Below the pieces are notes generated by a model. It was not told where the DNA came from, did no database searches, and saw nothing but the letters and a program-made list of their open reading frames with translations. From the NCBI GenBank assembly GCA_038045825.1, contig JBBSXJ010000004.1:95301-159300 (forward strand): a stretch of DNA of 64,000 nt. The letters are read 5' to 3'. This DNA is from Nanobdellota archaeon. Its GTDB lineage: Archaea; Nanobdellota; Nanobdellia; Pacearchaeales; GW2011-AR1. Numbering within the stretch: the stretch's first letter is position 1; each line of letters starts with the position of its first letter. A program made the position numbers and the translations under genes. Of this stretch, positions 1-57,806 are shown piece by piece.

Positions 1-1074
1 AAAGAGATTATTGAATCAAATGATGAATATTACATAAAGACTGATAAGATTGCTTTGATAGTTCAAGAATATTTTAACTCTCTTAATGTTGATGAGAAGA
101 AAGAGTTTGAAAACTCCATTACAGAAGCTAACAAGAATTATTACATGGAAGTATCAAAAGAATATGAAAAGACAGTAATTCACAAAGTTGGAATAGATGG
201 TTTGGATATTTCTTATTCTGGGACTGCTGAAGTTCCTGGTTATGTTTTGAATCAATTCTCAATGGATGAATATAAGGGTAATTTTAGGATTGCAACAACC
301 ACTGGAAACAGTTTTGGAAATATTGATCACTCTCTTAATCACCTTTATATTTTGAATGAAGATTTGGAGATTATTGGCAGTGTTGAAAATCTTGCTTCTG
401 GTGAAAGGATATATTCTGCTCGTTTTGTTGGAGAGAAGGCTTATATGGTTACTTTCAGGCAAGTAGATCCATTATATGTTATTGATTTATCTGATGCTTC
501 AAATCCAGAGGTTTTAGGATTCTTGAAAGTTACAGGATTTTCTAACTATCTTCATCCTATCGGAAATGATCTCCTGCTTGGAATAGGCCGTGAAGCTACT
601 GAAGAAGGAAGAACTGAAGGTTTGAAAATATCTTTGTTTGATGTTTCTGATTTTGAGAATCCTATTGAACTTGATAAGTATGTTGTTGAAAGTGATTGGT
701 CTTATTCAGAGGCCGAATATGAACATAAAGCAGTATTATTTGATGATGCCCGTGATTTGCTTGTTATTCCCGTTACATATTCTCAGCAATTAGGAAATAG
801 TTGGGAATATTGGCAGGGAGCTTTTGCCTTTACTGTAACTGATGAGGATGTATCTTTGAAAGGAAAGATATCTCATGATATGAAGAAAGACAATGTTAAA
901 GAATATTATGGGGAATATGGTTATGTTCAAAGATCTTTGTTTATGGATGATGTTCTTTACACGGTATCTAATCGTATGGTGAAAGCTAATTCTATTAATA
1001 ATTTGACTTTCATCTCTGATGTTGACTTGCCTTTCGAAGAACCTATTTATTATGCAGTGGATGCAGTTAGATAA
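1..1074 (+). CDS. beta-propeller domain protein, C-terminal part (5' end lies outside the window; frame is open to position 1)
   Basis: ORF 55..1074 stays open upstream to window edge; sequence resembles archaeal beta-propeller (Beta_propel-like) secreted proteins (…YSARFVGEKAYMVTFRQVDPLYVIDLSD…). Confidence 0.45.
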   Translation, partial: KEIIESNDEYYIKTDKIALIVQEYFNSLNVDEKKEFENSITEANKNYYMEVSKEYEKTVIHKVGIDGLDISYSGTAEVPGYVLNQFSMDEYKGNFRIATTTGNSFGNIDHSLNHLYILNEDLEIIGSVENLASGERIYSARFVGEKAYMVTFRQVDPLYVIDLSDASNPEVLGFLKVTGFSNYLHPIGNDLLLGIGREATEEGRTEGLKISLFDVSDFENPIELDKYVVESDWSYSEAEYEHKAVLFDDARDLLVIPVTYSQQLGNSWEYWQGAFAFTVTDEDVSLKGKISHDMKKDNVKEYYGEYGYVQRSLFMDDVLYTVSNRMVKANSINNLTFISDVDLPFEEPIYYAVDAVR

Positions 1075-3155: not shown

Positions 3156-3694
3156 AGAGCCTGCATAATATTTATATGCTCTTCTTTCCTTTATCATTTA
3201 TGGCTATAAGGAGAGATCAATTTTTTCTTGGATTAATTAGGATATGTCTTGGATTTGTATTTCTATGGGCTTTTTTAGATAAAACTTTCGGATTGGGTTT
3301 TGCTACTGTTTCTGAGAAGGCGTGGCTTGCCGGCGGTTCTCCTACATCTGGTTTCTTACTTAATGGAACTCATGGACTATTTGCAGGATTTTATCAATCT
3401 CTTGCTAATATACTTTTAATTGACTGGATCTTTATGATTGGTTTGCTCTGCATAGGATTATCTCTTATACTTGGAATTGCAGTTAGGATCGCAGGATATA
3501 GTGGTGCTTTACTTATGCTTTTAATGTACACTGCAGCTATGCCACCATCAAATAATCCTTTAATTGATGACCATATTATCTATGCATTAATTTTGCTTTT
3601 GTTTGCTAATGTGAAGATGGTAGGGCACTGGTTTGGAATGGGGGGTCTTTGGTCTAAGACTTCTCTGGTAAAAAAATATAGATTTCTTGAATAA
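3152..3694 (+). CDS. DoxX-like integral membrane protein
   Basis: multiple TM helices; LIRICLGFVFLWAFLDK resembles DoxX motif; true start may be internal (MAIRR…). Confidence 0.4.
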   Translation: MKSLHNIYMLFFPLSFMAIRRDQFFLGLIRICLGFVFLWAFLDKTFGLGFATVSEKAWLAGGSPTSGFLLNGTHGLFAGFYQSLANILLIDWIFMIGLLCIGLSLILGIAVRIAGYSGALLMLLMYTAAMPPSNNPLIDDHIIYALILLLFANVKMVGHWFGMGGLWSKTSLVKKYRFLE

Positions 3695-3748
3695 TCCAAA
3701 TTAATCAAAGAGAATTTGATTAATTATTCTTTATTTGTCTTAAATTCT

Positions 3749-3925
3749 CTAATTGACAATTCTTGATGTCGATAGTCTCTCACACAAACTACACCCTTTA
3801 GGGTGTGTTCAAGACTTCGATCATCCAAAAATCGAGCACCAATCAAACCACACACTAAAGTGTGTGGTGGTGCATCGATTTTTTGATTTAACTCTTTATT
3901 AAAAAAGAGAGAATTGTCAATAACT
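3749..3925. other. structured intergenic element: 10-bp terminal inverted repeat (ttgacaattc … gaattgtcaa) enclosing two perfect tetraloop hairpins (acaccc-ttta-gggtgt; accacacac-taaa-gtgtgtggt)
   Basis: seen directly in sequence between DoxX-like gene and gatB; GC-richer than flanks. Confidence 0.3.
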
Positions 3926-3953
3926 TAATATATTCAGGTTTTTTGTTCTAAAT

Positions 3954-5321
3954 ATGGTTAAACTGAAATGCGGACTTGAGATACATACTTATATTTTAAC
4001 TAATGAAAAGCTTTTTTGCAGATGTAAAGCCTCTCGTGAGAGAGGACTTGAACCTAATACTTTGATTTGTCCAATATGCACTGGTCAGCCTGGAGCAAAA
4101 CCCATGGCTCCTAATTTAAATGCTGTTGAGAAAGCTGTACAAATTGCATCAATGCTTGGGTGTAAAATCAATAGTGAAATGCCTTGGATGAGAAAACATT
4201 ATGATTGGCCTGACTTGCCTAAAGGTTATCAAAATACTATGAGTGGGGCTCACGCTGTTCCACTAGGGGTGAATGGTAAGTTTGAAGGAGTAAATATTGA
4301 AAGTATGCATTTAGAAGAAGATCCTGCTGCGTGGGATCCAAAAACTGGAGAGGTTGATTATAACCGAAGTGGATTGCCTTTAGTTGAAATAGTAACTGCT
4401 CCTGAATTTAAATCTGCAGATGAAGTTTATCATTGGGTAAATAAGTTAATTCACGCTTTGAATTATCTTAAAGTTGTTGATTCTAACGCTGGTATTAAAG
4501 CCGATGTTAATGTTTCATTAATTGATGATAGTGGTAAACAGAGGACAGAGAGGGTTGAAATCAAAAACATTACATCTATTGATGCAATGAAATCAGCTAT
4601 TCTTTTTGAGTTTGAACGTCAGTCTAAAGAGGGAAGTGTCCGTGAGACTAGAAGATATGATGAATCCAAGGGTATTACAATGAGAATGAGGAGCAAGGAA
4701 AAACAGGATGATTATAGATTCATAGTTGATCCTGATTTAATGTCTGTTGCATTAAAAAAGAGTTTTATTGATAATCAGGAGAAACTAATTCCTGAATTAC
4801 CTAGCGTTAAACTTGAGAAGCTGATTAAGAAATATAAAATAGACTCTATGAACGCTCTTGTTCTTGCTAAGGATTTAGATATAGTTTCATTCTTTGAAAA
4901 TGTTGCTGAAAAGATTGATGGAAAATTTGCTCTACCTTGGATTACTGTTGAATTACTTAGGGTATTGAATTATAATAACAAGAAGTTAAGTGAAGTTTTT
5001 GTTTCAGTTGAACATTTTGTTAAACTTCTTCACTTGGTGAAAGAAAAGAAAATAACTGAATTGCAGGCAAAACAGATTTTGAATAAATTTGTTCCTCAAA
5101 GTTTTGATCCTTCTAAGACAGAGGGAAGGATTGAAAGCGAGAAGGAACTTGAACCTGTGATCAGAAAAGTTTTGAATGAACATAAGAAAGTTGTAATTGA
5201 TTATATTAATGGAGATGTTAAGTCATTCAATTATTTGATTGGGGAAGTTATGCGTGCGACAAACAGAAGGGCTGATTCTAATGCTGTTAGAAAATTGCTT
5301 GAAAAAATGATAAAGAAGTAG
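3954..5321 (+). CDS. gatB: Asp-tRNA(Asn)/Glu-tRNA(Gln) amidotransferase subunit B
   Basis: GLEIH motif near N-terminus, GatB/GatE catalytic domain, C-terminal GatB/YqeY domain; 455 aa. Confidence 0.8.
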   Translation: MVKLKCGLEIHTYILTNEKLFCRCKASRERGLEPNTLICPICTGQPGAKPMAPNLNAVEKAVQIASMLGCKINSEMPWMRKHYDWPDLPKGYQNTMSGAHAVPLGVNGKFEGVNIESMHLEEDPAAWDPKTGEVDYNRSGLPLVEIVTAPEFKSADEVYHWVNKLIHALNYLKVVDSNAGIKADVNVSLIDDSGKQRTERVEIKNITSIDAMKSAILFEFERQSKEGSVRETRRYDESKGITMRMRSKEKQDDYRFIVDPDLMSVALKKSFIDNQEKLIPELPSVKLEKLIKKYKIDSMNALVLAKDLDIVSFFENVAEKIDGKFALPWITVELLRVLNYNNKKLSEVFVSVEHFVKLLHLVKEKKITELQAKQILNKFVPQSFDPSKTEGRIESEKELEPVIRKVLNEHKKVVIDYINGDVKSFNYLIGEVMRATNRRADSNAVRKLLEKMIKK

Positions 5322-29027: not shown

Positions 29028-30011
29028 ATGAATAATGAAGATGTTGCAAGAAAGAATCTACTTCGTGATAGCTTTGAGCCTGAAGGATTGAGTGTTAGGG
29101 GACCCGATTTTAATTTAGGAGTTAATTACAAGAGTATAATTGATTCTTTTGCTACGAGTGGATTTCAAGCCACTCATTTGAGTAAGGCTATTGAAATAAC
29201 TAATAATATGGTTGATGATGAAGCATTTGTTTTCTTAGGGTACACTTCAAATATGGTTTCTTCCGGACTGCGTGATGTAATTAGCTATCTTGTACAAAAT
29301 AAAAAAGTAAATGTTTTAGTTACAACTTGTGGAGGGATTGAAGAAGATATAATCAAATGTTTGGGAAGTTTCAAACTCGGAGAATTTAATGCTGATGGTG
29401 CTCACTTGAGAGAAAAAGGAATTAATAGAATTGGAAATATTTTTGTTCCTAATTCTAGATATGTTATGTTTGAAAAGTTTGTTCAGCCTATTCTTGAAGG
29501 ACTTTACCAAGAATCTAAGAAGACTGGAAAAGCAGTTACAGGAAACGAACTAATTTGGAAACTTGGAGAAAAAATTAAAGATGAAAATAGCATTTATTAC
29601 TGGGCCTGGAAAAATCAGATACCTGTTTATTGTCCTGCATTGCTGGATGGAGCACTTGGAGATAATATTTATTTCTTTAAATTTAAGAGACCAGAGTTTA
29701 CTATTGACTGCACTGAGGATGTTGTTTGGTTCAACAATACTACTATTGGTTTAAAGAAATCTGGTGCTATTATTTTGGGAGCTGGAGTTGTTAAACATGC
29801 AATACTAAATGCGAATATGTTGCGTAATGGCCTAGATTATTGTGTTTATATTAATACTAGCCAAGAATTTGATGGTTCTGATTCTGGTGCTTTGCCTTCT
29901 GAGGCAATTTCATGGGGAAAGATATTACCTGATGCACAAAGTGTAAAGGTTTTTGCTGATGCAACTATTGTTTTTCCGATCTTAGTTGCCGAAAGTTTTG
30001 CTAAAAATTAG
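29028..30011 (+). CDS. dys: deoxyhypusine synthase
   Basis: DHS-family sequence along the whole 327 aa (…GPDFNLG…, …AGVVKHAILNANMLRNGLDYCVYINT…). Confidence 0.75.
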   Translation: MNNEDVARKNLLRDSFEPEGLSVRGPDFNLGVNYKSIIDSFATSGFQATHLSKAIEITNNMVDDEAFVFLGYTSNMVSSGLRDVISYLVQNKKVNVLVTTCGGIEEDIIKCLGSFKLGEFNADGAHLREKGINRIGNIFVPNSRYVMFEKFVQPILEGLYQESKKTGKAVTGNELIWKLGEKIKDENSIYYWAWKNQIPVYCPALLDGALGDNIYFFKFKRPEFTIDCTEDVVWFNNTTIGLKKSGAIILGAGVVKHAILNANMLRNGLDYCVYINTSQEFDGSDSGALPSEAISWGKILPDAQSVKVFADATIVFPILVAESFAKN

Positions 30012-30144
30012 ATTTTAATTTGAAGAATAAGTTTAATAATCCTGTAAAAGTTGCTTCAAGTTCAAAGAATTTCAGCATAGATATAGTCGGCAGTTAGATT
30101 TGATTTATAATAAACCTTATAAATCATCTTATTCTTTTTTCTTT

Positions 30145-33100
30145 ATGAGGCAGAGTGTAGACTTTTTTATATTTGTTTTTTTTGTTGCTTTTTGTTCTTT
30201 TGTTTTATTTTTTGGGTCGAACAAAACTCATAGCTTCTTTGATGTTGATGGGACGATCACAGGCAAAGTTATTGAAGAAGATTTTCTTCTTAATATCTCA
30301 GATCTTAGAACTTTCCCTAAAATATATATTGGCTCATCGTGTAAAATTGAAAAAATTTCATCTAGTGTTAATTCTGTTCGGATTGGAGATGTTGTTCATT
30401 TTGAGGTTTTAGGGAAAAATTGCGATGGTTATAGAGTAGATTTTGAGATTTTTGAAAAAGATATTTTATTTGATGATCATATAATTGATCTTCAAAGTGG
30501 TTTTGAAAATGGTGTTGCTTCATTTGACTGGAAAGTTACTGATGAAGTTTTAATTTTATCTGATGAGTCTATAGAAGACTCCAGACTTGAAATTTATTCC
30601 ATTGTCCATCTTAGCTCTTCTCCTATTTATTCTAATAATTTGGTTTCTGAGAAAATTTATCTTTTTTATGATGGCTATATACCTTTATCTCCATCTGGCG
30701 GGTCTGGGCCCGAAAGTGTTCAATGTTCTTCAATTACTAGACATGGTATTACATGGACTTTTTCACAACCTAGGGAATGTGGACAATTTGTTAATGGAGA
30801 TTGGTGGGTTCTTGGTCCTGTGACTATTACTTCAGTTTCACCTGGACAAATATCGGGTAGGCATGGCTCATGGTTGAATCCACTTGCTAATCTTCCCAGT
30901 CCAGGTGGATACAGACACCCGTTTGATGATCGTGCTGCACAGTATGATCCTTCATTGAGGCCAACATTTCCTTTGACAGTTACACAACCAGGATCTTTAC
31001 TTTCTACTGCTAGTCATACAACCCCTAATAATTGTCCTTCTTGCTTTTTGCCTGATCCCCCTACAGCTTGCTCTGATCTTCTCTATGATACTAGCGAGGC
31101 TACGGTGCTTGATACTTGCAGTAAAACCACTTTACGTACTGCTGCAGTATTAACTATTCTTACTCAAGTACCTCCGGCAGATAGTTTTAGGCCAACTTAC
31201 TTTAGCACAGATAAAACTATTCGTTATAATAAAAATCAATTAGATTATTCTTTTTTTGGTAATTTGACTCCAACTCCATTAACACCTCCTTTGATTGAAG
31301 TTGAAAGATCTTTTGAAAGAGTAAATGTTCAAGTTATTCACTGGCCTACAGAATCGATTCAACCGTCTGAAAATGCAGTTGGATATGGCAGAGATTTTGC
31401 TGATGAAGTTAGCATTGCAGCTCTGTCTTTGAATTTGAATTATACTCAAGCACAAAAAGAAACTTTAGCGATACGTTTAGTTCAATTGGGTATTGATTTT
31501 AATGGTGCATTAGAATTGGGTATGGAATGGAATCCAAATGGAGGACATGGTAATGGGCGTTTTTTCCCTATTCTTCTTGCAGGACTTATGTTAAATGATT
31601 CAAGACTTTTGAATGCTACAACTTATCATCCTAGGTTTTTTAGTGAAAAAGGTCAAACATTTGCTGTAACTAATTATCCTCCAAATACTCCCTCTTCAGT
31701 TATTCCTCAATGTTCAGCTGGAGGTGTTAACTGCGGTCATGGAGGATATACTTCTGCAGATATAGGACTTCCTGACTTTGGGTTTTCTCACTGGACAGGT
31801 CCTATTGTTGATGCGAAAGATTGGTTTGGTGATTCTTATCGTCGTTGTTGTACTGCCAATGGATGGAATGGGTATATTTTAGCTTCGCATATAATGGGAG
31901 TTACTGATAGCTGGAATTATGATGTTCTTTTCCCTTATACTGATCGTTATATGGAAAATCCTTTGACTGCAGGATGGAGAAGCTGGCATCCTTGGCTTGA
32001 AGAAATGTGGGATACTTATCGTGCTAATTATAATCGAGAGTGGAATCCTAATGATCTTTGCACGGAAGGAACTAGGAGAAGTTGTGAAGAACAGAGAGGT
32101 GTTTGTTTTCAATCTCAAGAGACTTGCAAGTTTAAGAATTGGTGGGGATGCAGTGCGCCTACTTATTCTCCTACTACTTATATGACTCACAACTCAAATT
32201 ATCAGGTAACTGAAAATAGTTGTGATGGACTGGATAATGATTGTGATGGTCAAACTGATGAAGGGTGTGTACCTGGAAGTCCGCCTAACCCGCCTAGTGA
32301 TTTGAACGTTACTCCGGTAAGTTCTATACAATTAAGGCTGAATTGGAAAGACAATAGCAACAACGAAGATAAATTTGTTGTTCAAAGAAGGCAGTTACCT
32401 AATGGACTCTTTGCTAATTTATCTACTGCTTCTAACCTGCCTGCTAATACAGTTACATTTACTGATAATGGTTTGCCTGCAAGTACATCATTTGAATATA
32501 GAGTCTTGGCTGAGAATAGCATCGGAGTTTCAACTTGGTCTAATTCTGCGAGCAATACTACTAATCAAAGTGCTCCTAACACTCCTAGCGGATTAACTGT
32601 TATTCCAATTAACAGTTCTAGTTTGAGAATTAATTGGAATGATGTTGTAAATGAAAATGGATATACTTTACAATTTAAACTAGCGTCTGCTTCTATTTTT
32701 GTAAATGTTTTTGGAGCTGGAAGTTTGTCAGCTAACACAGTTAGCTTTACTCATAATGGACTCTTAAATAATACTTCTTACAATTACCAGATTCTTGCAT
32801 TTAATAGTGGAGGTAATTCTTCATTTTCTCAAATAGCTACTGGCACTACAAATCAAAGTGCTCCACTTGACTTTATAATTTCTAGAAACCCTATATCTGG
32901 ATCTGTACAAAGAGGGAATTCTGTTTCTACTACAGTTACTGCGACTTATACTTCTGGAGTTTCATCTGCTGTGGCATTTACTGCTACTAACTTATCTGCT
33001 GGAATTTCTGCATTGTTTAGTCCAATAAGCTGCACTCCTTCCAGCGGAAGTCCTTGCTCTTCTACTCTTACACTATCTGCTTCTTCTAGCGCTGCTTTGG

Positions 33101-34278
33101 TTTCTAATCAAAGTGTTATAATTACTGGGACAAGCGGAGCAGTTGTTAGAAATGTGAATTATAACTTGACTGTTTTGAGTGTACCTGTTTGCACTAATGG
33201 ACAGGTTAGAAATTGTCAAGAACAGAGAGGAGTTTGTCTGAATTCATTTGAGACCTGTACTCTAAATAACTGGCCTGGATGCAATTACAATTCTATTCCA
33301 GGATATGCTTCTGTTGAAACTGGAGTTGAATTGTGTCGTGATGGACTTGATAATGATTGCGATGGAACACAAGATATTGGCGGAGATTCTGGATGCCCTA
33401 TACCTCGTTACTCTAGATTTAATAATAATATTACAACTAATCTTTCTAATGTAAGTGATCTAACTAGAGTTGTTAACTTCTCTGTTGGAATTCCAAGTAT
33501 TGGTAGAATACAATATTTGAGCCAAGAGGTTTCTTTATGGAGACTTGTTAATGGAGTTTACCAGGCACTAGATCTTGATAATGCTATTGCTATTGCAAGA
33601 AATATAGTTGGAGTATATAGTGAAAGTTATAGTGAATTGAATCAAACTGCTAGAGTTACTTTCTATAACCTGAGTTATACTGATGCTCCTGTTCCTACTA
33701 TTCAAACATCTAATGGATTTAGTATATGCTCTTCATCTAGATGTTTGCCTTTGTCTTATTCCAATGGTGAATTTGTAATGACTACTGTTGGATTCTCTAA
33801 CTATAGTACTCAAGTTTCAACTTGTGGAGATTCATATTGTCATGTGTTAACTGAGACTTGTTCTTCTTGTAGTTCTGATTGTGGATCGTGTGGGACTGGT
33901 TCTAGTTCTGGAGGATCATCTGGTGGTAGTTCTGGAGGAAGCGGTGGACCTCCTAGCAGATCTAGTACTTTAGTTACTCAATGCAATGATGGAGTTGATA
34001 ATGATGGTGATGACTTAGTTGACTATCCTGCTGATTTAGGCTGCTTGAATGCTAATGATAATATAGAACTTGATGAAATTATATTGGAATCTGAAGACTT
34101 CTCTGAAGAACCAGAGACCTTAACTCTTAGACCCAGAGATATAGGAATAGGATTTGTATTTTGGGTTGTTTTAATAGTTTTAATTTTGGGGATAATAGTT
34201 GTCGGAATAATAATAGCTAGTCATGTTCATAAGAGAAAGAAGTTTAGTGAATATATTAAGACAATAAATAAAAATTAG
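30145..34278 (+). CDS. giant cell-surface protein B, paralog of A and C. The ORF track starts at 30100; the internal ATG at 30145 gives a MRQSVDFFIFVFFVAF signal anchor
   Basis: TM anchor; ~450-aa N-terminal globular region; Cys-rich repeats (CEEQRGVCFQSQETCKFKNWWGC…CDGLDNDCDGQTDEGC); three FN3 modules; shared C-terminal module STLVTQCNDGVDNDGDDLVDYPADLGC + TM + KRKKF tail. Confidence 0.7.
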   Translation: MRQSVDFFIFVFFVAFCSFVLFFGSNKTHSFFDVDGTITGKVIEEDFLLNISDLRTFPKIYIGSSCKIEKISSSVNSVRIGDVVHFEVLGKNCDGYRVDFEIFEKDILFDDHIIDLQSGFENGVASFDWKVTDEVLILSDESIEDSRLEIYSIVHLSSSPIYSNNLVSEKIYLFYDGYIPLSPSGGSGPESVQCSSITRHGITWTFSQPRECGQFVNGDWWVLGPVTITSVSPGQISGRHGSWLNPLANLPSPGGYRHPFDDRAAQYDPSLRPTFPLTVTQPGSLLSTASHTTPNNCPSCFLPDPPTACSDLLYDTSEATVLDTCSKTTLRTAAVLTILTQVPPADSFRPTYFSTDKTIRYNKNQLDYSFFGNLTPTPLTPPLIEVERSFERVNVQVIHWPTESIQPSENAVGYGRDFADEVSIAALSLNLNYTQAQKETLAIRLVQLGIDFNGALELGMEWNPNGGHGNGRFFPILLAGLMLNDSRLLNATTYHPRFFSEKGQTFAVTNYPPNTPSSVIPQCSAGGVNCGHGGYTSADIGLPDFGFSHWTGPIVDAKDWFGDSYRRCCTANGWNGYILASHIMGVTDSWNYDVLFPYTDRYMENPLTAGWRSWHPWLEEMWDTYRANYNREWNPNDLCTEGTRRSCEEQRGVCFQSQETCKFKNWWGCSAPTYSPTTYMTHNSNYQVTENSCDGLDNDCDGQTDEGCVPGSPPNPPSDLNVTPVSSIQLRLNWKDNSNNEDKFVVQRRQLPNGLFANLSTASNLPANTVTFTDNGLPASTSFEYRVLAENSIGVSTWSNSASNTTNQSAPNTPSGLTVIPINSSSLRINWNDVVNENGYTLQFKLASASIFVNVFGAGSLSANTVSFTHNGLLNNTSYNYQILAFNSGGNSSFSQIATGTTNQSAPLDFIISRNPISGSVQRGNSVSTTVTATYTSGVSSAVAFTATNLSAGISALFSPISCTPSSGSPCSSTLTLSASSSAALVSNQSVIITGTSGAVVRNVNYNLTVLSVPVCTNGQVRNCQEQRGVCLNSFETCTLNNWPGCNYNSIPGYASVETGVELCRDGLDNDCDGTQDIGGDSGCPIPRYSRFNNNITTNLSNVSDLTRVVNFSVGIPSIGRIQYLSQEVSLWRLVNGVYQALDLDNAIAIARNIVGVYSESYSELNQTARVTFYNLSYTDAPVPTIQTSNGFSICSSSRCLPLSYSNGEFVMTTVGFSNYSTQVSTCGDSYCHVLTETCSSCSSDCGSCGTGSSSGGSSGGSSGGSGGPPSRSSTLVTQCNDGVDNDGDDLVDYPADLGCLNANDNIELDEIILESEDFSEEPETLTLRPRDIGIGFVFWVVLIVLILGIIVVGIIIASHVHKRKKFSEYIKTINKN

Positions 34279-34459
34279 ATTTTAGTGTTTCTAATCCTTT
34301 CTGCTATTCTAGACTTTTCTTCTTCTGAAATATCTTCTCTGAAAGGAACTCTTTCGTATTCAGATATTAAATGTCTTAGACTTCCTTTGCTAGGAAGAAC
34401 ATGAATATGTACATGTTCTTGAGTACTATTTGCTCCACTATTAATATGTATATTTGGAG
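34275..34459 (-). pseudogene. relic of a HIT-family (histidine triad) gene, C-terminal 61 codons only
   Basis: translates to …NSGANSTQEHVHIHVLPSKGSLRHLISEY… (HxHxHxx triad) but is preceded by an in-frame stop and has no start. Confidence 0.45.
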
Positions 34460-34524
34460 AGTCAGGATGTTAAAGAATCTGGAAAATTAGTCGGAGTTAT
34501 AACAAAAGCAGATGTTATTAAGTG
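34456..34524 (+). pseudogene. relic of a CBS-domain gene (C-terminal ~25 codons)
   Basis: …QDVKESGKLVGVITKADVIKCLK* typical CBS-domain C-terminus with no upstream gene body; abuts the HIT relic. Confidence 0.35.
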
Positions 34525-34567
34525 CTTGAAGTAAAAGTTTAAATACTACTTAATACTACCTAGTAGT

Positions 34568-34795
34568 ATGGAAAACATTAGCCTAAAACTTGAAAGAAAC
34601 TTTTTGGATGCTATAACAAAGGTGATGAAGAGGCATAATTATACTACTAAGACTGAATTTATTAGAGAATCTATTCGCGATAAAATAAGAAGACTTGAGG
34701 AAAAAGAAATACTTGAGGATAAAGATATGATGGCACAAATCAGGGCTAGTGAGAGGAACATGAAGAAAGGTAAAGTTAAAAAATTTATTTATTAA
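34568..34795 (+). CDS. ribbon-helix-helix (CopG-like) antitoxin-type small protein
   Basis: 75 aa; N-terminal beta-strand followed by helices (KLERNFLDAITKVMKRHNYTTKTEFIRESIRDKI). Confidence 0.45.
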   Translation: MENISLKLERNFLDAITKVMKRHNYTTKTEFIRESIRDKIRRLEEKEILEDKDMMAQIRASERNMKKGKVKKFIY

Positions 34796-35049
34796 TAAAT
34801 TTTATGGGTTCCTACTGCTTGTATGACTATATATTTTAATTCTTCTTTGATAACATAAACTGTTCGTATATTTGAGCCTAACCAGCATGCCCATTTGCCC
34901 TTTAAATCTCCATGAAGTTGGTGAGCTCCATTTGCTCTTCTTGGATTTTCTTTTAGTCTATCTAACTTGTAAGTTATGTCATTTCTTAGGGCCATATATT
35001 TTTGTAATTTTTTCTCCACTTTTGAGTTCGCAGTTGCTATTTCGTACAT
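34792..35049 (-). CDS. relE: RelE/ParE-family toxin (mRNA interferase)
   Basis: …GAHQLHGDLKGKWACWLGSNIRTVYVIKEE…IVIQAVGTHKIY RelE/YoeB-type core; convergent with the RHH gene, overlapping by 4 nt. Confidence 0.65.
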   Translation of the reverse strand: MYEIATANSKVEKKLQKYMALRNDITYKLDRLKENPRRANGAHQLHGDLKGKWACWLGSNIRTVYVIKEELKYIVIQAVGTHKIY

Positions 35050-35174
35050 TTTTGTTTAGATTTATGAGTTAATTGGCTTAAACTACTTTTTTGTTACGCT
35101 TATTTTGTTACGAAAATATAATTTTATGACACACACAATTATTTAAAGTGAAAATACAATAAGAAATCAATTAT

Positions 35175-50026: not shown

Positions 50027-53000
50027 TTATAATTTCTGAATGAAACCTGCCTTTGGCTTGAAAATGTCTCCTGATTTTGATAATTGATTTATTGCATCTT
50101 CTATTTCTTCTTTTGTTAGTTTTTCTCCCAATTCTTTTTCTAGTTCTGCTGTGGGGATTAGTTTTCCTAGACTTTGTTCTAACTTAGATATTGTTTCTCT
50201 TACTATTATGATTTTATTTCTTTTTGATGCAGGAATTCCAGTTGTTATTCTATCTACATCAAATGTTTGAGTTTCTTCATCAAATCCTACTTGCATCATC
50301 GAATATTTTAGTAATTTTATTGCTCTTCTTGCGTCTTCAACACCCACATAACTACTCAATCTTATTTTTGCACATGCTTCTGAAAGTCTTACTATTGCCT
50401 CTAATTGTCTAGCAGTTATTGGAATTGCTTTTATTTCTGAATTTCCAGATAATGTTCTATTTCTTATTGAAATATAGAATTCTTTTATTTCTTCTGCCGC
50501 TTCGTCTGTTAATTTTGGTTTTATTTTTCTTGCAAATGCGACATACTTTCTTAATAGTTTTGGATCTATTACATCTCTTTCAACTGTTTGTTTGTGTTCT
50601 TCTAAGACATGAGATGCAATTGCTTCATCCTGGACTCTGTTTGGTATGTCTCTTAATACAAAGATAACATCAAATCTACTTAATAATGCTGGAGAGATAT
50701 TGATTTGCTGAGGAATAGGAATTACTGGATCAAATCTTCCTAATTTTGGGTTGCCAGCTGCTAGAACTGAAGTTTCTGATCTTAGTGTTGCTTGGATATT
50801 TGCTTTGGAGATTGTAACAGTATTATGAAGAATTGCTGCTTGGGAAACAAACGCATGGTTTGGTTCAATAGTTACATCGTAAACCCATTCTTCATCTTCA
50901 TTGTCCATTACTTCAACACCCCTTACTTTTTCCCACCCAATATCTCCCGTTAATATTTCTAAGAACTCCTTGTTTTTTTCATTTTTAACTTGGAGCAGTA
51001 AATTTTTCAAGAAATCTGCTGAAAATGAAAACTTGTCATTTCTAACTTGATGATCATAAATTATGTCATATTGCTTATATTTGCCTACTTGAGTTATATT
51101 CTCTTCTTTAATTATTGCGATTATTGATTCGTTAAAATCTAAAGGAAGCCTGTTTTTTACATATCTCCTTATCTTTTTTTCTTTAAGATAATTATTTATT
51201 ATTTGATTCTTTCTCTCTGTTACAAATCCAATATTTTCAGAGAATCTTTGAATATTTTGATAATCTGTTATTCCTACCTTGTAAAATCCTTTATGCTCTG
51301 TTACTGAACTTCTTATTTTAAACCTAAGCAGCAAGTCTTGTATTTGCTCTGCTAGTCTTTTACTTTTTGTTGAATATCCTATCCTTATTGTTCTCTTTTT
51401 TATTGAAGCATAACCATCTCCTTCAAATAAACAGGAGATCATTGCTGCAATATTTTCTTTTTCACCTTTCATCGCAAATTTTGGTATTTCTTTCTCTCCT
51501 GCATATCTAATCATTTCATGCATATTCTTTAAAATAAAATTACTTAGCTCTCTAGAAATATAACGGCAGAAATACATTGGGCCTGTCGGATCTATTCTTA
51601 TCTGTTTATATGGTTTAAGATTAAATGTCTTTTTCATACATTCTTCAAAATCTTTTATGACAATTTCATCTTTATTCGCAAAACTTATCCTGATTAATTT
51701 ACCTCTATTTCTTTCCTTTGATCCCTCTGAAACAATATATCCTACTATCTTGAATAGCTCTCTGCAATTAGATGTAGGAATAGTTGGATGTTGTTTTATT
51801 CTTTGGTCCAAGCTTACCCCCATCTTTTCAAATACTTGTTTCTTTCCACTTATTGGCATACTTAATGGAATTGGGATTGGATCTTCTAGTTGGATATTAT
51901 CTGCTCTTTTTGTTATTATTTTTCCATCTTTTACAGTGAATACGGGATGTTCCGGGGTAACTATTATTTCTCTCCCATGAGATAATTTTATTTTAATAAA
52001 TTTTTTAAAAGCTTTATGCTTGCTTATGCGAGTAGCTTTTATTGGAGAGATATTTTTCCAATCTGTTGTAAGTAGTTCTAAATCATTAACATGAAGTATT
52101 AAACAGTCTTTTCCTTGAATTATTTTTTCTTTATTTTTTTCTAGAAGACTCTCAACTAATTCTCCTATTTTTACTTCTTGACCATCTGCTAGACTAATTA
52201 TTGTATCTTTGTGATAACATTGTTGCTCCATGCTTTCATGCATCGTTGATCTATCATGTTCGTCCATTTTTTCTATTTCATCTATACAAACTGTTCCTTT
52301 ATTTGATAGAACCATTGCTCCTGCTTCTAGAGACCATCCTTTCAAAAATTCATCTTTTACAACTGCTGCTGTAAGGCCTGCTCCTGTTGCTGCTTTTCCA
52401 GAAACATAACGTCCTTTAGGAGCTACACGAGATACAAATTTTAGAGTTACCGATTTTGCTACTCCAGGATCTCCTACTAAAAGAACGTGAATGTCTCCTC
52501 TTGTGTTCCCACCATCTGAACGTTTTTTCTTTACACCTGAAAATAACTGAAGAAGTATAGCTTCTTTTACTTCTTTGAAACCATATACGCTTGGAGCTAT
52601 ACTGCTTGCAAGTCTTTCAAATGCTTTTGGATCTGTAGCTATTTTTTTTATTTGTTCTTCGTCTTTTTCATTTACTTCCAGATCATCAAATGTTTCTTCT
52701 AAAGGTATTGCATTATTTGCTTCAATTGCTAAATCGAATCTTGTAGAAATAGAACCTTGCTGAAGAGGTACAGGAACTTCCTTTAGAACACCTATTATTC
52801 TTACTTTACTTCCAGGAGTCGTTCTATCTTCCATTCTAGGATCTACCAAATCTTCTTTCAGAAAGACATTCATTCTTCTTGGCTGCTCTCCTCCTTCTAA
52901 TGAATCTGGAGATTCTTCAATTACAAGACGTTGAGCATCAACCAGTTCTTTTGAAAGTAGTTTGAATAATCCCTTTCTTCCGCATGAACATCTACTTGGT

Positions 53001-53434
53001 TCTCTGAATTTTCTGTCTATTTGAAGAACTGATAAAATTGCTCCACATGTTGGACATTCAAATCTGGCATTAACAACTTGAGGTCTTACATCTGACGCTT
53101 GACGAACTATTCCTTCAATTGTTATGAATTGATCTAAATGTTTTGCCCTAATTTCTTTTATTTTTATTTTGACTGAATCTGGGAGAGATGTGAATCTTAT
53201 TCTTGGAGGTTTTGGAAGGTATGCTTGTTCTTCCAGGCAAAGTTCTAATAAGGCAATTATTTCTTCTGGAGTCTCTAAAAGTTTTTCTGATAACATTGGA
53301 GAAAATTTAGATAAGTGATAAAAGTCTAAAGGAACAACTTGGTCATTTTTTACAGATCTTATTATCTCCTTCTTGCTGTTTTGGAAGAATTCTTTTGCTT
53401 CTTTTTCAAGTTCCTGCTTTTTTCCTAGTTCCAT
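50027..53434 (-). CDS. mcm: MCM replicative helicase, interrupted in-frame by an intein
   Basis: zinc finger CPTC…CSC, Walker A GDPGVAKS, Walker B CIDEIEKM, HESMEQQ|intein|TVTISKANIQ, arginine finger SRFDVIF; extein 669 aa. Confidence 0.9.
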   Translation of the reverse strand: MELGKKQELEKEAKEFFQNSKKEIIRSVKNDQVVPLDFYHLSKFSPMLSEKLLETPEEIIALLELCLEEQAYLPKPPRIRFTSLPDSVKIKIKEIRAKHLDQFITIEGIVRQASDVRPQVVNARFECPTCGAILSVLQIDRKFREPSRCSCGRKGLFKLLSKELVDAQRLVIEESPDSLEGGEQPRRMNVFLKEDLVDPRMEDRTTPGSKVRIIGVLKEVPVPLQQGSISTRFDLAIEANNAIPLEETFDDLEVNEKDEEQIKKIATDPKAFERLASSIAPSVYGFKEVKEAILLQLFSGVKKKRSDGGNTRGDIHVLLVGDPGVAKSVTLKFVSRVAPKGRYVSGKAATGAGLTAAVVKDEFLKGWSLEAGAMVLSNKGTVCIDEIEKMDEHDRSTMHESMEQQCYHKDTIISLADGQEVKIGELVESLLEKNKEKIIQGKDCLILHVNDLELLTTDWKNISPIKATRISKHKAFKKFIKIKLSHGREIIVTPEHPVFTVKDGKIITKRADNIQLEDPIPIPLSMPISGKKQVFEKMGVSLDQRIKQHPTIPTSNCRELFKIVGYIVSEGSKERNRGKLIRISFANKDEIVIKDFEECMKKTFNLKPYKQIRIDPTGPMYFCRYISRELSNFILKNMHEMIRYAGEKEIPKFAMKGEKENIAAMISCLFEGDGYASIKKRTIRIGYSTKSKRLAEQIQDLLLRFKIRSSVTEHKGFYKVGITDYQNIQRFSENIGFVTERKNQIINNYLKEKKIRRYVKNRLPLDFNESIIAIIKEENITQVGKYKQYDIIYDHQVRNDKFSFSADFLKNLLLQVKNEKNKEFLEILTGDIGWEKVRGVEVMDNEDEEWVYDVTIEPNHAFVSQAAILHNTVTISKANIQATLRSETSVLAAGNPKLGRFDPVIPIPQQINISPALLSRFDVIFVLRDIPNRVQDEAIASHVLEEHKQTVERDVIDPKLLRKYVAFARKIKPKLTDEAAEEIKEFYISIRNRTLSGNSEIKAIPITARQLEAIVRLSEACAKIRLSSYVGVEDARRAIKLLKYSMMQVGFDEETQTFDVDRITTGIPASKRNKIIIVRETISKLEQSLGKLIPTAELEKELGEKLTKEEIEDAINQLSKSGDIFKPKAGFIQKL
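50822..52219 (-). mobile_element. MCM intein (466 aa) with LAGLIDADG homing-endonuclease domain
   Basis: starts with Cys right after MEQQ (CYHKDTIISL), ends …AAILHN followed by Thr; LAGLIDADG-like blocks IVGYIVSEGS and ISCLFEGDGYAS. Confidence 0.8.
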
Positions 53435-53564
53435 TGGAAGTAGGGGTTGTGTTTGCTTTAAATTGTTTATTGCTATCTTAGCATATGTTTGTTTATTGTT
53501 AATACTTCAGGGTTTTGCTATATGGTTCTTCATTTACAGTTGTTGTTCTTGCGATCATCTCTAG

Positions 53565-53687
53565 ATTTGCATTTTGGATTGTTTTAGTAATTTTGATTTT
53601 AAGAAAATAGTTGCTGGAATAATAACAGCAAGTCATATTCATAAGAGAAAGAAGTTTAAAAACTCATTATGGATTTGTGATTTTTAG
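53565..53687 (+). pseudogene. relic 3' end of a fourth giant-surface-protein paralog (TM helix + KRKKF tail), degraded by a stop
   Basis: ~85% nt identity to 34169..34250 (C-terminal TM/tail of protein B); translates to …IVAGIITASHIHKRKKF… with internal TAA. Confidence 0.45.
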
Positions 53688-53738
53688 TTGTTGAATTCTA
53701 GAACAAACTTTATAAATGACTTTTGTATACTTATTGTA

Positions 53739-56700
53739 ATGAAAAGAGATGGTTTTTTATTTGTAGTTATTGCTTTTGCCATTCTCTCTGCTTTTGTTTT
53801 TTATTTTGATTACTCTAAAGAATGTGGTTCCGTTGTTTGTATAGCAACATTTGTTTCCACTGGAGAGACTTCGGCTTCCGAATATAAGTTAGATGATTCT
53901 GTTTTATCTAAAATTATTTATCCTTTCGTTAATCCTGTTGAAGGTGTTCTTTTACAGCCTGCTGATGATCCAACTGAACCACCTTTGCCACCTAGTGATT
54001 TAAATGCTACACCTTTAAGTTTTTCCTCTATGAGATTGGATTGGAAAGATAATAGTAATACTGCAAATAATGGTGAGGAAGGATTTATTTTGCAGTATAA
54101 ATTATCTTCTGCTCCTGCATCTGCTTGGGCGGATGCTCCTGGTGCTAATGGTTTGCCTCCAAACACAGAATCATTTATACATAATAATCTCATGCCAAGC
54201 ACTTCTTATGATTATAGAGTGCTTGCTTATAATATAATTGATTCTTCTCCTTGGTCAAATACTGCTACTGGAATTACTCTATCTGATGCGCCTATTATTA
54301 ATTCATTTAGTCCTAATCCTGTTTATAATCATGTTTCAACTAATGTTTCAATACTAGGAGATAATCTTCCAGTTAATTTTGCTATTTTGTTTAAACCTCA
54401 AGGACAAGCTAGTTATGATCCTTATTGTTCTTTTGCTACTGCTGGCTGTTCTAGAATTAGCTCTAATGAAATTAGATTTCCTATACAGAGAAATGCTATC
54501 GCAGATGTTTATGATATTAAAGTTGTTAATTTAGATAATTCTCGAGAATCTCAACCTCAGCAGCTTACTATTAGAAATGCACCTGTTCCAATAATTAGTA
54601 CATTAACTCCTGGAACTGTAAGACATAATATTGCAAGGACGATTACAATTAATGGATCTAATTTGATGCCAGAGTATGCTATTTTTGCAAGAGATACACT
54701 TACTCAAACGACTCTGAGTATTTGTAATTATCTTACTGGAAGTAATTATAATTGTAATTGGGTTAATAGCAATACATTCACTTTTGTGATTCCTCAAGGA
54801 CAGGATACAGGGTCTTTTGAGTATCAATATGCTAATGTAATAGATGCTAATACTGGTTTCTTTCAGTATTCAGTTAATTGGTTGCCTTTGACTATAGAGC
54901 CTACGACTTGTCTTGATGGTGTCGATACTACTCCTTGTAGTAACCAACAAGGTGTTTGTCAAGGTTCTGTTGCTAGATGTGTTGATGGAGAGTTTGAAGT
55001 TTGCAATTCTGCAACTTATTCTACTCATAGTCTAAATTATGCTTCTGTTGAAACTGGCTCTGTTTTATGTGCTGATGGTAGCGATAATGATTGTGACGAG
55101 CTTAATATTGCTACTGGTGGAAGAGATTATGTTGGAAGTGGAAATGGTGCTATTAAAGGAGATACTGGCTGTCCTATTCAAATTACAAATATAAATGCAC
55201 CTTCTAGTGTTAATACAGGCACTAATTTTAATTTAGTTTGCACATCAAATCCTGGAAGTGTTTCTGTTGCATTAGATGGATTTATTGACTCTTCTTCTTG
55301 CGCTTTATCTAGTTCTAGTGGAAATACCGCTACTTTTAGCTGTGTTAGTTCTTCTACTCCTGGGATAACTCAAATTGCAAAGTGCGACGTTGATTCTTCT
55401 ATATCTTATAGGAGTGGAAATGCTTTGACATCTAATGTACAAATAACTGCTAGTTCTTGTTCTGGATATAGTGAAAGTACAAGTTGCAATGCTGCACCTG
55501 GTAATATTTGTCAATGGTGTCTTGGATGTGCTGGTACCAGCGGGACTAAATCTAGCGGGGGTCCAGATAGATGTGTAGATGCAGGTACTTGTTCTGGATC
55601 TTATCAATGTAGAATTAATCAATGTGGTGCTACGTGTGAGGGAACTTCTAGTGGTTGTTCTCAATCACAGAGTTGTAATGCTAACTCTTGCGGTTGTGTT
55701 GATCAGAGCCCGGTTATAAATAATATAAATAATCTTCCTAGTCCTACATTTTCATGGGGATCTAACAATGCTTTAACTGTTAATGGACAATATTTTGCTT
55801 CTAATGCTGAATTAAGAATTGATGGAGTTCCTTGTTCTACACGATGTCAGAATTTAGTTATTACTGGAAATAGTATCTCTTTTAATATTGGGGCTGGAGC
55901 ATTTGGAGTTGGAACTCATACTATTGTTGTTAGAAACCCAACTCCTTCTCCTGGATTGAATTCTAGCTCTTTAACTTTCACTTTAAGATCTAATCCTGTA
56001 ATAAACTCTGTTTCCCCTAATATTATTGTTAATAATGTTAATAATGTGATTAATATAACTGGAAATGATTTTGATCCTTTAGCAATTGTTACTGCTAATG
56101 GAATAGCTGTAACTCCTTTGATAGTTGTTGTTAATTCTAATTTAATACAATTACCTTTACCTCCTGGAATATTGGGGACTTTAGTAGGGGACTTTGCAAT
56201 TAGAGTTATAAGTGGAGATGGTGTTGTTTCTTCTCCTCCGCAAAATCTTAGAGTTAATTACCCATTTAGTTATCTTTCTACATTGAATCCTTCTATTGTT
56301 CCTGTTGTTTCTGGATCTTCATTTAATGTCCTGGTTGAATTAGAAAGTCTTGTTGAAATGACTCAAGAAGAAGTTATTATTTCTGCTCAGTCTATTCCTG
56401 AAGCTTCTGTTAGCTTTGTTGGATTAGATAGATGCACTCCTAGTGCTGGAAACCCTAATCCTACTTGTAATGTGACTCTTGATGTAGATGTTGGAAATGT
56501 AGTTGAACAAGATTATAATATTACTATTACTGCAACATCTCAAACTACCAACATTGTCCGTCGGGTTACGTTAATTTTGCAAGGGGAGATAGGAACTCTT
56601 GCTGAATGTAGAAATGGTATTCAAGATACTCATGAAACTTGTGTAGATGGCGGAGGTCCTATCTGCGCACCTGCTGGTATTTTATGTGGCTTTGGAGAGT

Positions 56701-57806
56701 CTTGTTTATTAAATTCTGATTGTGTTGTTGCTGGCTCTGCATATACTGCTGGATTGTGTTATAGCAATAATATTTGTAGTATAGATAATGATGGAGATAG
56801 TGTTCCTGATGGACCAATTCCCAATAATTTAGATTTATGTCTTAATACTCCTATATCTACAATTGTTAGTACTTTGAATGGGTGTCCTGTTCCTTCTGTT
56901 TCTAGATTTGTATCTCCGTTAACTACTAATTTCTTTGCAGTTCCTGATTTGAGCAATGTTCAAGATATGTCTCTGGCGGTTTCTGGGGCAGGAAGAATAC
57001 AATATTTAGGGCAAAGAGTTTCTGTTTTGAGAAATGCTACAGGGGTTCATCAGGCTTTGAATTTAGATAATGCCGTAAATATAGAAAGCAATTTGATTGG
57101 GGTTGATGCTTTGGGTAATCCTGAACTTGATCAAACTGCTGTTTTGACATTTGAAGGTTTATCTTACTCTGAAGCGCCTACTCCTGTTGTTTCAAGTTCT
57201 ACAGGATATATTGTTTGTCCTTCTACTTTATGCCAGAGTTTGTCTTATGTTAATGGAGTATTCAGCGTGAATGTTGCTGGATTTAGTAATTATAGTACTC
57301 AAAATTCTACCTGTGGAGATACTTATTGTAGTTTGAGTGAGACTTGTTCTTCTTGTGGTTCTGATTGCGGAGTATGTACTTCTTCTAGTGCAAGTGGATC
57401 TGGTAGTGGTAGTTCTGGAGGATCAGGAGGATCTAGTGGGGGACCTCCTAGAAGATCTAGTACTTTAGTTACTCAATGCAATGATAGAATTGATAATGAT
57501 GGAGATGGAAGGATAGATTATCCTGCAGATACTGGATGTACAAATGTTCAAGATAATCTGGAATTGTTTGTAGAACCTCTTATTGATACAGACGAAGAAG
57601 AAACAGGAGAGGAGATTTCTCTTGAAAGAATATTTGAAGTAAGGGTTGTATTTTGGATAGTTCTTCTTGCTTTGATTGGAGGAATAGTTGTTGTATCTAC
57701 AGTAATACTTAGAGATTTGATGGGAAGAAAGAAATTTAATCAGCTTTCTAAAGCAATTAATCCAACCCAATCTTCAACGCGGAGTTCTCCTCCTGTAGGC
57801 ATATAA
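53739..57806 (+). CDS. giant cell-surface protein C, paralog of A and B. The ORF track starts at a TTG at 53688; the ATG at 53739 gives a MKRDGFLFVVIAFAIL signal anchor
   Basis: N-terminal anchor, FN3 module, Cys-rich modules homologous to protein A (25-30 Cys), C-terminal region homologous to protein B (…STLVTQCNDRIDNDGDGRIDYPADTGC…), acidic linker, TM, basic tail. Confidence 0.7.
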   Translation: MKRDGFLFVVIAFAILSAFVFYFDYSKECGSVVCIATFVSTGETSASEYKLDDSVLSKIIYPFVNPVEGVLLQPADDPTEPPLPPSDLNATPLSFSSMRLDWKDNSNTANNGEEGFILQYKLSSAPASAWADAPGANGLPPNTESFIHNNLMPSTSYDYRVLAYNIIDSSPWSNTATGITLSDAPIINSFSPNPVYNHVSTNVSILGDNLPVNFAILFKPQGQASYDPYCSFATAGCSRISSNEIRFPIQRNAIADVYDIKVVNLDNSRESQPQQLTIRNAPVPIISTLTPGTVRHNIARTITINGSNLMPEYAIFARDTLTQTTLSICNYLTGSNYNCNWVNSNTFTFVIPQGQDTGSFEYQYANVIDANTGFFQYSVNWLPLTIEPTTCLDGVDTTPCSNQQGVCQGSVARCVDGEFEVCNSATYSTHSLNYASVETGSVLCADGSDNDCDELNIATGGRDYVGSGNGAIKGDTGCPIQITNINAPSSVNTGTNFNLVCTSNPGSVSVALDGFIDSSSCALSSSSGNTATFSCVSSSTPGITQIAKCDVDSSISYRSGNALTSNVQITASSCSGYSESTSCNAAPGNICQWCLGCAGTSGTKSSGGPDRCVDAGTCSGSYQCRINQCGATCEGTSSGCSQSQSCNANSCGCVDQSPVINNINNLPSPTFSWGSNNALTVNGQYFASNAELRIDGVPCSTRCQNLVITGNSISFNIGAGAFGVGTHTIVVRNPTPSPGLNSSSLTFTLRSNPVINSVSPNIIVNNVNNVINITGNDFDPLAIVTANGIAVTPLIVVVNSNLIQLPLPPGILGTLVGDFAIRVISGDGVVSSPPQNLRVNYPFSYLSTLNPSIVPVVSGSSFNVLVELESLVEMTQEEVIISAQSIPEASVSFVGLDRCTPSAGNPNPTCNVTLDVDVGNVVEQDYNITITATSQTTNIVRRVTLILQGEIGTLAECRNGIQDTHETCVDGGGPICAPAGILCGFGESCLLNSDCVVAGSAYTAGLCYSNNICSIDNDGDSVPDGPIPNNLDLCLNTPISTIVSTLNGCPVPSVSRFVSPLTTNFFAVPDLSNVQDMSLAVSGAGRIQYLGQRVSVLRNATGVHQALNLDNAVNIESNLIGVDALGNPELDQTAVLTFEGLSYSEAPTPVVSSSTGYIVCPSTLCQSLSYVNGVFSVNVAGFSNYSTQNSTCGDTYCSLSETCSSCGSDCGVCTSSSASGSGSGSSGGSGGSSGGPPRRSSTLVTQCNDRIDNDGDGRIDYPADTGCTNVQDNLELFVEPLIDTDEEETGEEISLERIFEVRVVFWIVLLALIGGIVVVSTVILRDLMGRKKFNQLSKAINPTQSSTRSSPPVGI

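Follow-up and report, generated by a model that had tools for sequence, protein, structure and literature searches.

A short stretch upstream of gene C is probably the collapsed remnant of a further giant surface-protein gene in a DPANN archaeon

What is the short stretch of DNA that immediately precedes gene C, one of three giant surface-protein genes (A, B and C) in the 64,000-nucleotide stretch of genome analysed here (the window; GC content 32%)? The host is a DPANN archaeon of the Woesearchaeota/Nanoarchaeota type, and related contigs are labelled as Woesearchaeota/Nanoarchaeota MAGs, many of them from Hainich groundwater. The A, B and C proteins contain 1,355-1,440 residues; each starts with a signal peptide and ends with one C-terminal TM helix and a basic tail, with fn3/TIG domains and then an acidic Cys-rich linker in between. 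Gene B runs from an ATG at 30145 to a stop at 34278 (forward strand). Gene C begins with the ATG whose first base is 53739, not with the TTG at 53688 at which a mechanical list of open reading frames starts it. Between gene C and the gene for the archaeal MCM helicase (50027..53434, reverse strand, containing a LAGLIDADG intein) lies a spacer of 304 bp (53435..53738). A reading of this DNA from its letters alone (the sequence-only reading) had proposed that the spacer holds a degraded copy, about 85% identical, of the C-terminal TM helix and KRKKF tail of protein B, i.e., the footprint of a deleted or recombined paralog.

When the 305-bp intergenic region before gene C was compared by blastn with the whole window, 53564..53658 (forward strand) aligned with the 3' end of gene B (34151..34246, forward strand) at 82 of 96 positions (85.4%), with one gap and an E value of 7e-26, whereas every other non-self match had an E value of at least 0.05. 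The similarity is thus well above the background for AT-rich sequence, and the identity that had been claimed proved correct. The 18-mer CATAAGAGAAAGAAGTTT occurs at only two sites in the window, i.e., in the remnant and in the 3' end of gene B. Translation of the remnant yields RFAFWIVLVILIL and, after a frame shift, IVAGIITASHIHKRKKF, where the counterpart in gene B reads GFVFWVVLIVLILGIIVVGIIIASHVHKRKKF; by tblastn, residues 1352-1383 of protein B were matched by the remnant in two frames (FAFWIVLVILIL plus IVAGIITASHIHKRKKF). By both methods, the core of the remnant is a degraded B-type C-terminal TM helix and KRKKF motif, with significant homology to the giant fn3/TIG family (genes A, B and C), and its closest relative is the corresponding coding end of the intact gene B.

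The sequence-only reading had the frame interrupted by an in-frame TAA. No such codon was found; the lesion is instead a 1-bp deletion within 53600..53607 (forward strand), the exact site of which is ambiguous in the alignments, beside a GGG-to-AGA change (Gly to Arg). The deletion shifts the frame, the upstream frame terminating at TAG 53608..53610, while the downstream frame reads through KNSLWICDF to the TAG at 53685..53687. With this frameshift and premature stop, no more than about 55 codons are left out of some 1,350. The 13 substitutions that separate the remnant from gene B comprise 12 transitions and one transversion, or 11 and two, depending on gap placement; the transitions are silent or exchanges among V, I, A and T, and keep the helix hydrophobic. 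Against a transition fraction of 0.65 between strains, this excess has a P value of about 0.03, a weak hint that the sequence may have spent time as a functional anchor under selection. The same remnant, with the same 1-bp deletion and two SNPs in 401 bp, is present in L083 and L084, which are independent assemblies of another strain, and is therefore not an artefact of assembly or sequencing.

On the right, the homology to gene B ends abruptly at 53658 (34246 in gene B), 30 bp short of the stop codon of B. As read from the translation, the remnant then continues into a tail of its own, KNSLWICDF, and the stop TAG at 53685..53687 (53659..53687 in all, forward strand). These last nine codons are unrelated to the last ten of gene B (SEYIKTINKN and the stop). 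A K/N-x-L pattern after the basic motif is recurrent in the tails of the family, and is found in the tail of the remnant as well. The stop codon lies 51 bp upstream of the ATG of gene C; in L082, where a C gene and a B gene stand in tandem, the spacing between them is 58 bp. A family-typical tail and stop at this distance from gene C agree with the proposed footprint of a paralog.

On the left, the core is preceded by 41 bp (53522..53562, forward strand; junction at 53563/53564) that encode YGSSFTVVVLAIIS and are identical at 31 of 41 positions (76%) to the signal-peptide region of gene C (53749..53789, encoding DGFLFVVIAFAILS). They share their reading frame with the TM remnant, the translation running from YGSSFTVVVLAIIS directly into RFAFW. 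The match is short and T-rich. Its Smith-Waterman score was equalled in 1.3% of shuffles, and in a blastn search of 1 Mb the match to gene C (about 30-31 bits, E = 0.045) was tied for second to fourth place among non-self matches, two unrelated matches having an equal score and the equivalents in L049 and L002 appearing in the top dozen. A profile of four C-family 5' regions, run with nhmmer against 1 Mb, gave E = 0.043 for 53522..53562, which ranked right after the 5' ends of the giants in L003 and L017 and before that of L052. On these similarities, the 41 bp are probably a fragment of a C-type signal peptide and, if so, the gene would have collapsed by one internal deletion that joined codon ~18 to the start of the TM helix.

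Other origins of this left end were considered and rejected. A derivation from the gene for a small secreted 'PNPGH' protein, which stands next to MCM in some relatives, was not supported, as a profile of small-gene 5' ends gave no match. A tandem duplication of the segment from FtsZ through MCM together with gene B, followed by random loss, was rejected in favour of a C-type head; the B-type head that it predicts is contradicted by the 5' region of B, which scored below the shuffle mean (Smith-Waterman) left of the remnant. The microhomology TTTGTnTTTT, which encodes F-V-F-aromatic in both the signal peptide and the TM helix, was considered as the deletion joint. However, the codon at the joint, AGA, is of B type (GGA) and not of C type (GCT), which places the joint just before the shared motif, so that use of the microhomology is not supported.

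The remainder of the spacer flanks the remnant on both sides. The MCM-proximal part (53435..53521) carries the MCM promoter block TTTGCTTTAAATTGTTT at 53452..53468, conserved in L002, L004 and L049, with which it was compared; beyond this block it runs collinear with the sequence between MCM and C in relatives, but contains no TATA box recognisable as that of a giant gene. On the other side, the promoter and leader of gene C (53696..53738, forward strand) consist of TAGAACAAAC and then TTTATAAAT at 53709..53717, and are likewise conserved in L002, L004 and L049. The giants share a promoter pattern, (T/C)TTATAAAT, about 25-30 bp upstream of the ATG, which is found at 53709 for gene C (ATG at 53739) and at 30116 for gene B (ATG at 30145). 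With the MCM block at 53452..53468 and the C promoter at 53709, the remnant is positioned between two divergent core promoters. A decayed C promoter at 53466..53521 was rejected as a candidate because the similarity was not above that of shuffles (p = 0.6); MAFFT places this segment collinearly, which we did not count as evidence.

Related genomes were collected by a scan with the MCM N-terminus, which gave 80 loci (designated by L numbers), and five more were added by look-ups; the ORFs of the window were mapped onto these loci by tblastn. A scan of genome contigs with C gave one distant locus only (L001, cut at the contig end), and an exact look-up of the MCM protein of the window matched no recorded entry. 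The conserved backbone comprises the genes for an MBL-fold protein, deoxyhypusine synthase (DHS) and FtsZ and, further on, MCM, then a variable slot, then aRF1 and a class I aminoacyl-tRNA synthetase. Depending on the relative, the slot between MCM and aRF1 holds zero, one or two giants. There is none in L007-L010 and L018, where about 0.5-0.65 kb separate MCM from aRF1. L003 and L017 have the small PNPGH gene plus one giant; L049, with 97% MCM identity, has the small gene plus a C-headed giant that is 37% identical to C; and L004 has a C-like giant directly beside MCM, with an 85-bp spacer. In L002/L082, a C ortholog (81%) is beside MCM with a 115-bp spacer, and a B ortholog (66-73%; P0001) follows 58 bp later. 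A tandem array of these genes, as the sequence-only reading had envisaged, therefore does exist in a relative.

An intact paralog upstream of gene C had been expected in related genomes. We looked for one, and no intact giant lies between MCM and a C-type gene among the sampled relatives, C being next to MCM in L002 and L004, and the small gene being there in L049, L003 and L017. The remnant is absent from the loci of sister genomes; when it and the 3' end of gene B were searched by blastn against the 80 related loci, no homolog was found outside the species, so that the remnant is not traceable to a donor. The tail of the L002 B ortholog is only about 44% identical in protein to that of B in the window. 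Since the remnant is 85% identical to B in DNA, the L002 tail about 44% in protein, and the 3' end of B without a match in relatives, the split between remnant and B was probably recent and within the lineage. Third-codon identity between the window and its closest sister, L049, is 62-83%, and the copy event probably postdates the split from L049, as judged from these comparisons.

Several further features of the slot and its neighbours are recorded here as observations in their own right. The PNPGH gene encodes a secreted, Cys-rich protein of about 170-250 aa with the motif after the signal peptide, and lies between MCM and the giant in L049, L003, L017, L052 and L053 (in L049 at 3472..3996 of the locus, upstream coordinates 78..602); no trace of it was found in the window. 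Upstream coordinates 600..1400 of L049 correspond to 53690..54500 of the window, with promoter, leader and the first ~70 codons as in gene C. The rest of the L049 giant is only about 37% identical to C, as if a conserved head had been kept while the body behind it was exchanged. In a database protein of 983 aa, P0002, the signal peptide and N-terminus are of C type and the central domain is of B type, which shows that heads, bodies and tails of the family are shuffled between genes. The MCM intein (about 430 aa, with a LAGLIDADG endonuclease, at residues ~413-871) is present in the same-species L083 and absent from L049, L002/L082 (where MCM has 670 aa), L003, L004 and most others; the MCM proteins of L017 and L052 have apparent insertions at other positions. 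At the far end of the slot, the stop codon of gene C ends at 57806 and that of the convergent aRF1 gene begins at 57807, with zero intergenic bases and no room for a terminator.

Within the species, the loci L083/L085 (on a 514,524-bp contig), L084 and L086 are collinear with the window and 98-99.7% identical to it. Gene B is in the same place in these strains, and its 3' end is identical in L085 and L086. Because the remnant and the B tail are both fixed while being 15% apart, they are not being homogenised. The spacer diverges between strains at 6.6 differences per kb, compared with 6.7 for MCM; with only two SNPs in 304 bp, this similarity speaks neither for nor against neutrality of the remnant. 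Gene C has 29 differences per kb, clustered in a 1.5-kb block (55739..57238) with about 7% divergence, and the middle of gene B (30882..32845) is a divergent allele with about 80% identity, indels and one fn3 unit fewer. This mosaic pattern suggests recombination among surface-protein alleles, and the apparently replaced segments of B and C amount to population-level turnover. Together with the varying number of giants per slot, and the absence of gene B from its present site in L049, L004 and L018, it upholds the earlier suggestion that turnover of these genes is ongoing.

The locus of gene B carries a reciprocal trace. Wedged between the DHS stop codon and the promoter of B (CTTATAAAT at 30116) are the post-TM tail and stop of a C-type giant (30008..30097, forward strand; LDFNLKNKFNNPVKVASSSKNFSIDIVGS and a stop), recognised by comparison with L082. 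In L082/L002 the B ortholog stands directly behind a C ortholog, and the tail of this C ortholog (in L082, GKNRFNNLAKVASSSSNSPPLGI and a stop) matches positions 30008..30071 with 83.3% identity over 66 bp (E = 1.3e-11 in a search of 1.1 Mb). This trace was found only through the C-to-B junction of L082, as it is too diverged from C of the window; when A, B and C were compared by tblastn with the remainder of the window, the only giant-gene remnant detected was the B tail before C. A C-to-B junction at the B locus and a B-to-C junction at the C locus imply that a tandem array of at least C-type, B-type and C once existed. The order in L082 is C and then B, so that an extra copy of C must be assumed.

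In L049 and L004, DHS lies about 100 bp from FtsZ, and in comparison gene B and the 0.9 kb of gene fragments form an insertion in the window; L018 has a different insert, of 1.4 kb, at the same site. The last ten codons of B (34247..34278) are not homologous to the tail of the remnant or to other family tails, and were probably created at the junction formed by the copying of B to its present site. The 0.9 kb after B (34279..35130) look like an insertion hotspot, with a HIT-domain C-terminal fragment (~34290..34470, reverse strand; weak, E = 0.068), a CBS-domain 3' fragment (~34458..34532, forward strand; E = 0.0015) and an RHH/VapB-like ORF (34568..34795) that overlaps a YafQ/RelE-like ORF (34792..35049, reverse strand) as a toxin-antitoxin-like pair. 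This segment has no homologs in the loci outside the species.

We conclude that 53522..53687 is probably a collapsed pseudogene without function, all that is left of an additional giant surface-protein gene of the fn3/TIG family, which we call X. Its B-type membrane anchor, i.e., the TM helix, KRKKF, a short tail and a stop codon, is demonstrated by alignment and translation; a position of X head-to-tail before gene C, within the variable slot that separates MCM from aRF1, is supported; and a C-type signal peptide is probable. The intact X would have had a C-type head and a tail ending KRKKFKNSLWICDF / ...HKRKKFKNSLWICDF and a stop. In the history that we propose, the slot of this lineage would have held a tandem array of at least C-type, B-type and C. 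A piece extending from the C-type tail through the B-type KRKKF would have been copied into the spacer between DHS and FtsZ, where it would have become the present gene B, with the C-tail remnant in front and ten new codons at its end. The copy left in the slot, now redundant, would have been removed by one large internal deletion joining the signal-peptide region to the TM helix, and would have decayed further by the 1-bp deletion, the Gly-to-Arg change and the loss of the start codon and TATA box. That the copying came before the deletion is inferred. Today the remnant is likely to be inert spacer DNA, its sole effect being to have lengthened the MCM-to-C spacer from about 85-115 bp to 304 bp. 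A whole-gene origin at this site has the 3' end, the stop and the 51-bp spacing in its favour. Against it, an intact giant between MCM and a C-type gene is lacking in all sampled relatives, the putative promoter region is not significantly like the C promoter and none is recognisable, and the 5' fragment is short and T-rich (E about 0.04), with a blastn score equalled by two unrelated matches in 1 Mb.

The same weaknesses give room to a different and rather unlikely explanation, according to which about 95-125 bp of the 3' end of B were copied as a patch into the spacer between MCM and C, no full-length gene ever having stood there. Filler DNA in double-strand-break repair, template switching or ectopic conversion are examples of the routes that it could have taken, and the 41 signal-peptide-like bp would then be a chance match between T-rich sequences coding for hydrophobic residues. 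The lack of any relative with an intact gene at the site, the sharp ends of the B homology on both sides, a 5' match that merely reaches the background blastn score, and the unrecognisable giant-gene promoter would all follow naturally from such a patch. However, it fits poorly with the different, family-like tail with its own stop beyond the B homology, at tandem-gene spacing from the ATG of C, and with a correctly oriented, in-frame 5' match that only the C-family profile recovers. From the reciprocal C tail in front of B it is evident that real gene-to-gene junctions were involved, and the 11-12 transitions among 13 substitutions, which keep the helix hydrophobic, are a weak hint of time spent under selection (P about 0.03).

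That the stretch is instead a functional element, encoding a small membrane peptide or serving the divergent promoters of MCM and C as an RNA or a regulatory spacer, is very unlikely. Short ORFs with TTG starts do exist in it (53515..53610, 31 aa, and 53574..53687, 37 aa), its sequence is nearly identical between strains, and the distance between the two promoters has been tripled. However, TTG is the only start available and no TATA box lies upstream, the conservation between strains matches that of its surroundings (6.6 differences per kb, with 6.7 in MCM), and of the two strain SNPs one alters a codon in the 31-aa ORF. The element is missing from every sister genome, and the repaired peptide matches no protein family. 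It thus lacks the plausible start and promoter, the conservation beyond the species and the family match of a small-protein gene. It likewise lacks the Rfam match or unusually stable fold of a known structured RNA: an Rfam search returned only a plant miRNA model (E = 0.86, far below the gathering score), and the fold of the stretch was no better than that of shuffles (z-score = -0.16).

The two copies of the B-type anchor (34151..34246 and 53564..53658) also constitute 95-bp direct repeats, 85% identical, that bracket a 19.4-kb segment from FtsZ through MCM. A still less probable suggestion is that the reciprocal remnants are retained homology patches for exchanging or re-arraying cassettes between the B and C loci, or that the 95-bp repeats serve excision or amplification of the 19.4-kb segment. 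Were either true, this would be a primitive recombination-based surface-variation system in a DPANN archaeon; among the available strains, there was no evidence of recombination between the repeats. Chance similarity of AT-rich sequence or an assembly artefact is scarcely conceivable, for although the genome has 32% GC and TM-helix codons are T-rich and repetitive, the E value of 7e-26 stands against at least 0.05 elsewhere, the exact 18-mer is confined to two sites, and independent assemblies of another strain show the same structure.

If the remnant is what it appears to be, it is a concrete and datable footprint of the reshuffling of giant surface proteins, which are a likely interface with hosts or viruses, in an ultra-small and probably host-dependent archaeon. 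The footprints at the two loci would record tandem arrays, duplicative relocation and the collapse of a redundant copy, all after the divergence from a sister lineage with 97% protein identity in the N-terminal region of MCM. For annotation, the remnant should not be called a small gene, and the odd C-terminal tail of B finds an explanation.

Among known systems, PGF-CTERM/archaeosortase sorting signals share the layout of the anchor: in both, secreted proteins end in an acidic linker followed by a hydrophobic helix and a basic tail. However, the remnant and the giants have no PGF or similar motif, the PGF motif being absent from the family tails, and neither A, B and C nor the repaired remnant peptide matched the PGF-CTERM-type NCBIfam models at E <= 0.1. 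The anchor therefore looks like an ordinary TM anchor and does not correspond to a known sorting signal. In bacterial pilin or vlp-type systems, surface variation is generated from silent cassettes by segmental gene conversion, and there too partial copies of a surface-protein gene lie near expressed ones. Here, by contrast, there is one fragment per locus, 15% diverged, with both copies fixed and unchanged across strains, and the remnant covers the membrane anchor only and not an exposed variable region. With no homogenisation and only the anchor copied, this is not a cassette-conversion system.

Closer is the general phenomenon of prokaryotic pseudogene remnants left by the deletional decay of redundant paralogs, familiar from the literature on 'deletional bias'. 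The likeness lies in a short, frame-disrupted family fragment in an intergenic spacer, produced by a large deletion and then small lesions, and fixed within the species while absent in sister species. It differs in that both ends of the lost gene may survive here, joined in frame, and in that the reciprocal remnant at the new locus of the paralog makes part of the history readable. The remnant is thus a case of ordinary turnover in a fast-changing surface-protein family, and no new element or mechanism is involved.

The cell-surface proteins of Nanoarchaeota are reported to be highly variable at the SNP level (PMC6142677), and here too the giant secreted fn3/TIG genes are the most variable in an otherwise collinear neighbourhood. 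Whereas that variation consists of point differences, the turnover seen here is structural, i.e., copying, moving, deletion and allelic replacement of internal segments, and to population-genomic work on how such proteins turn over in DPANN archaea the locus contributes a rearrangement history that can be read cleanly.
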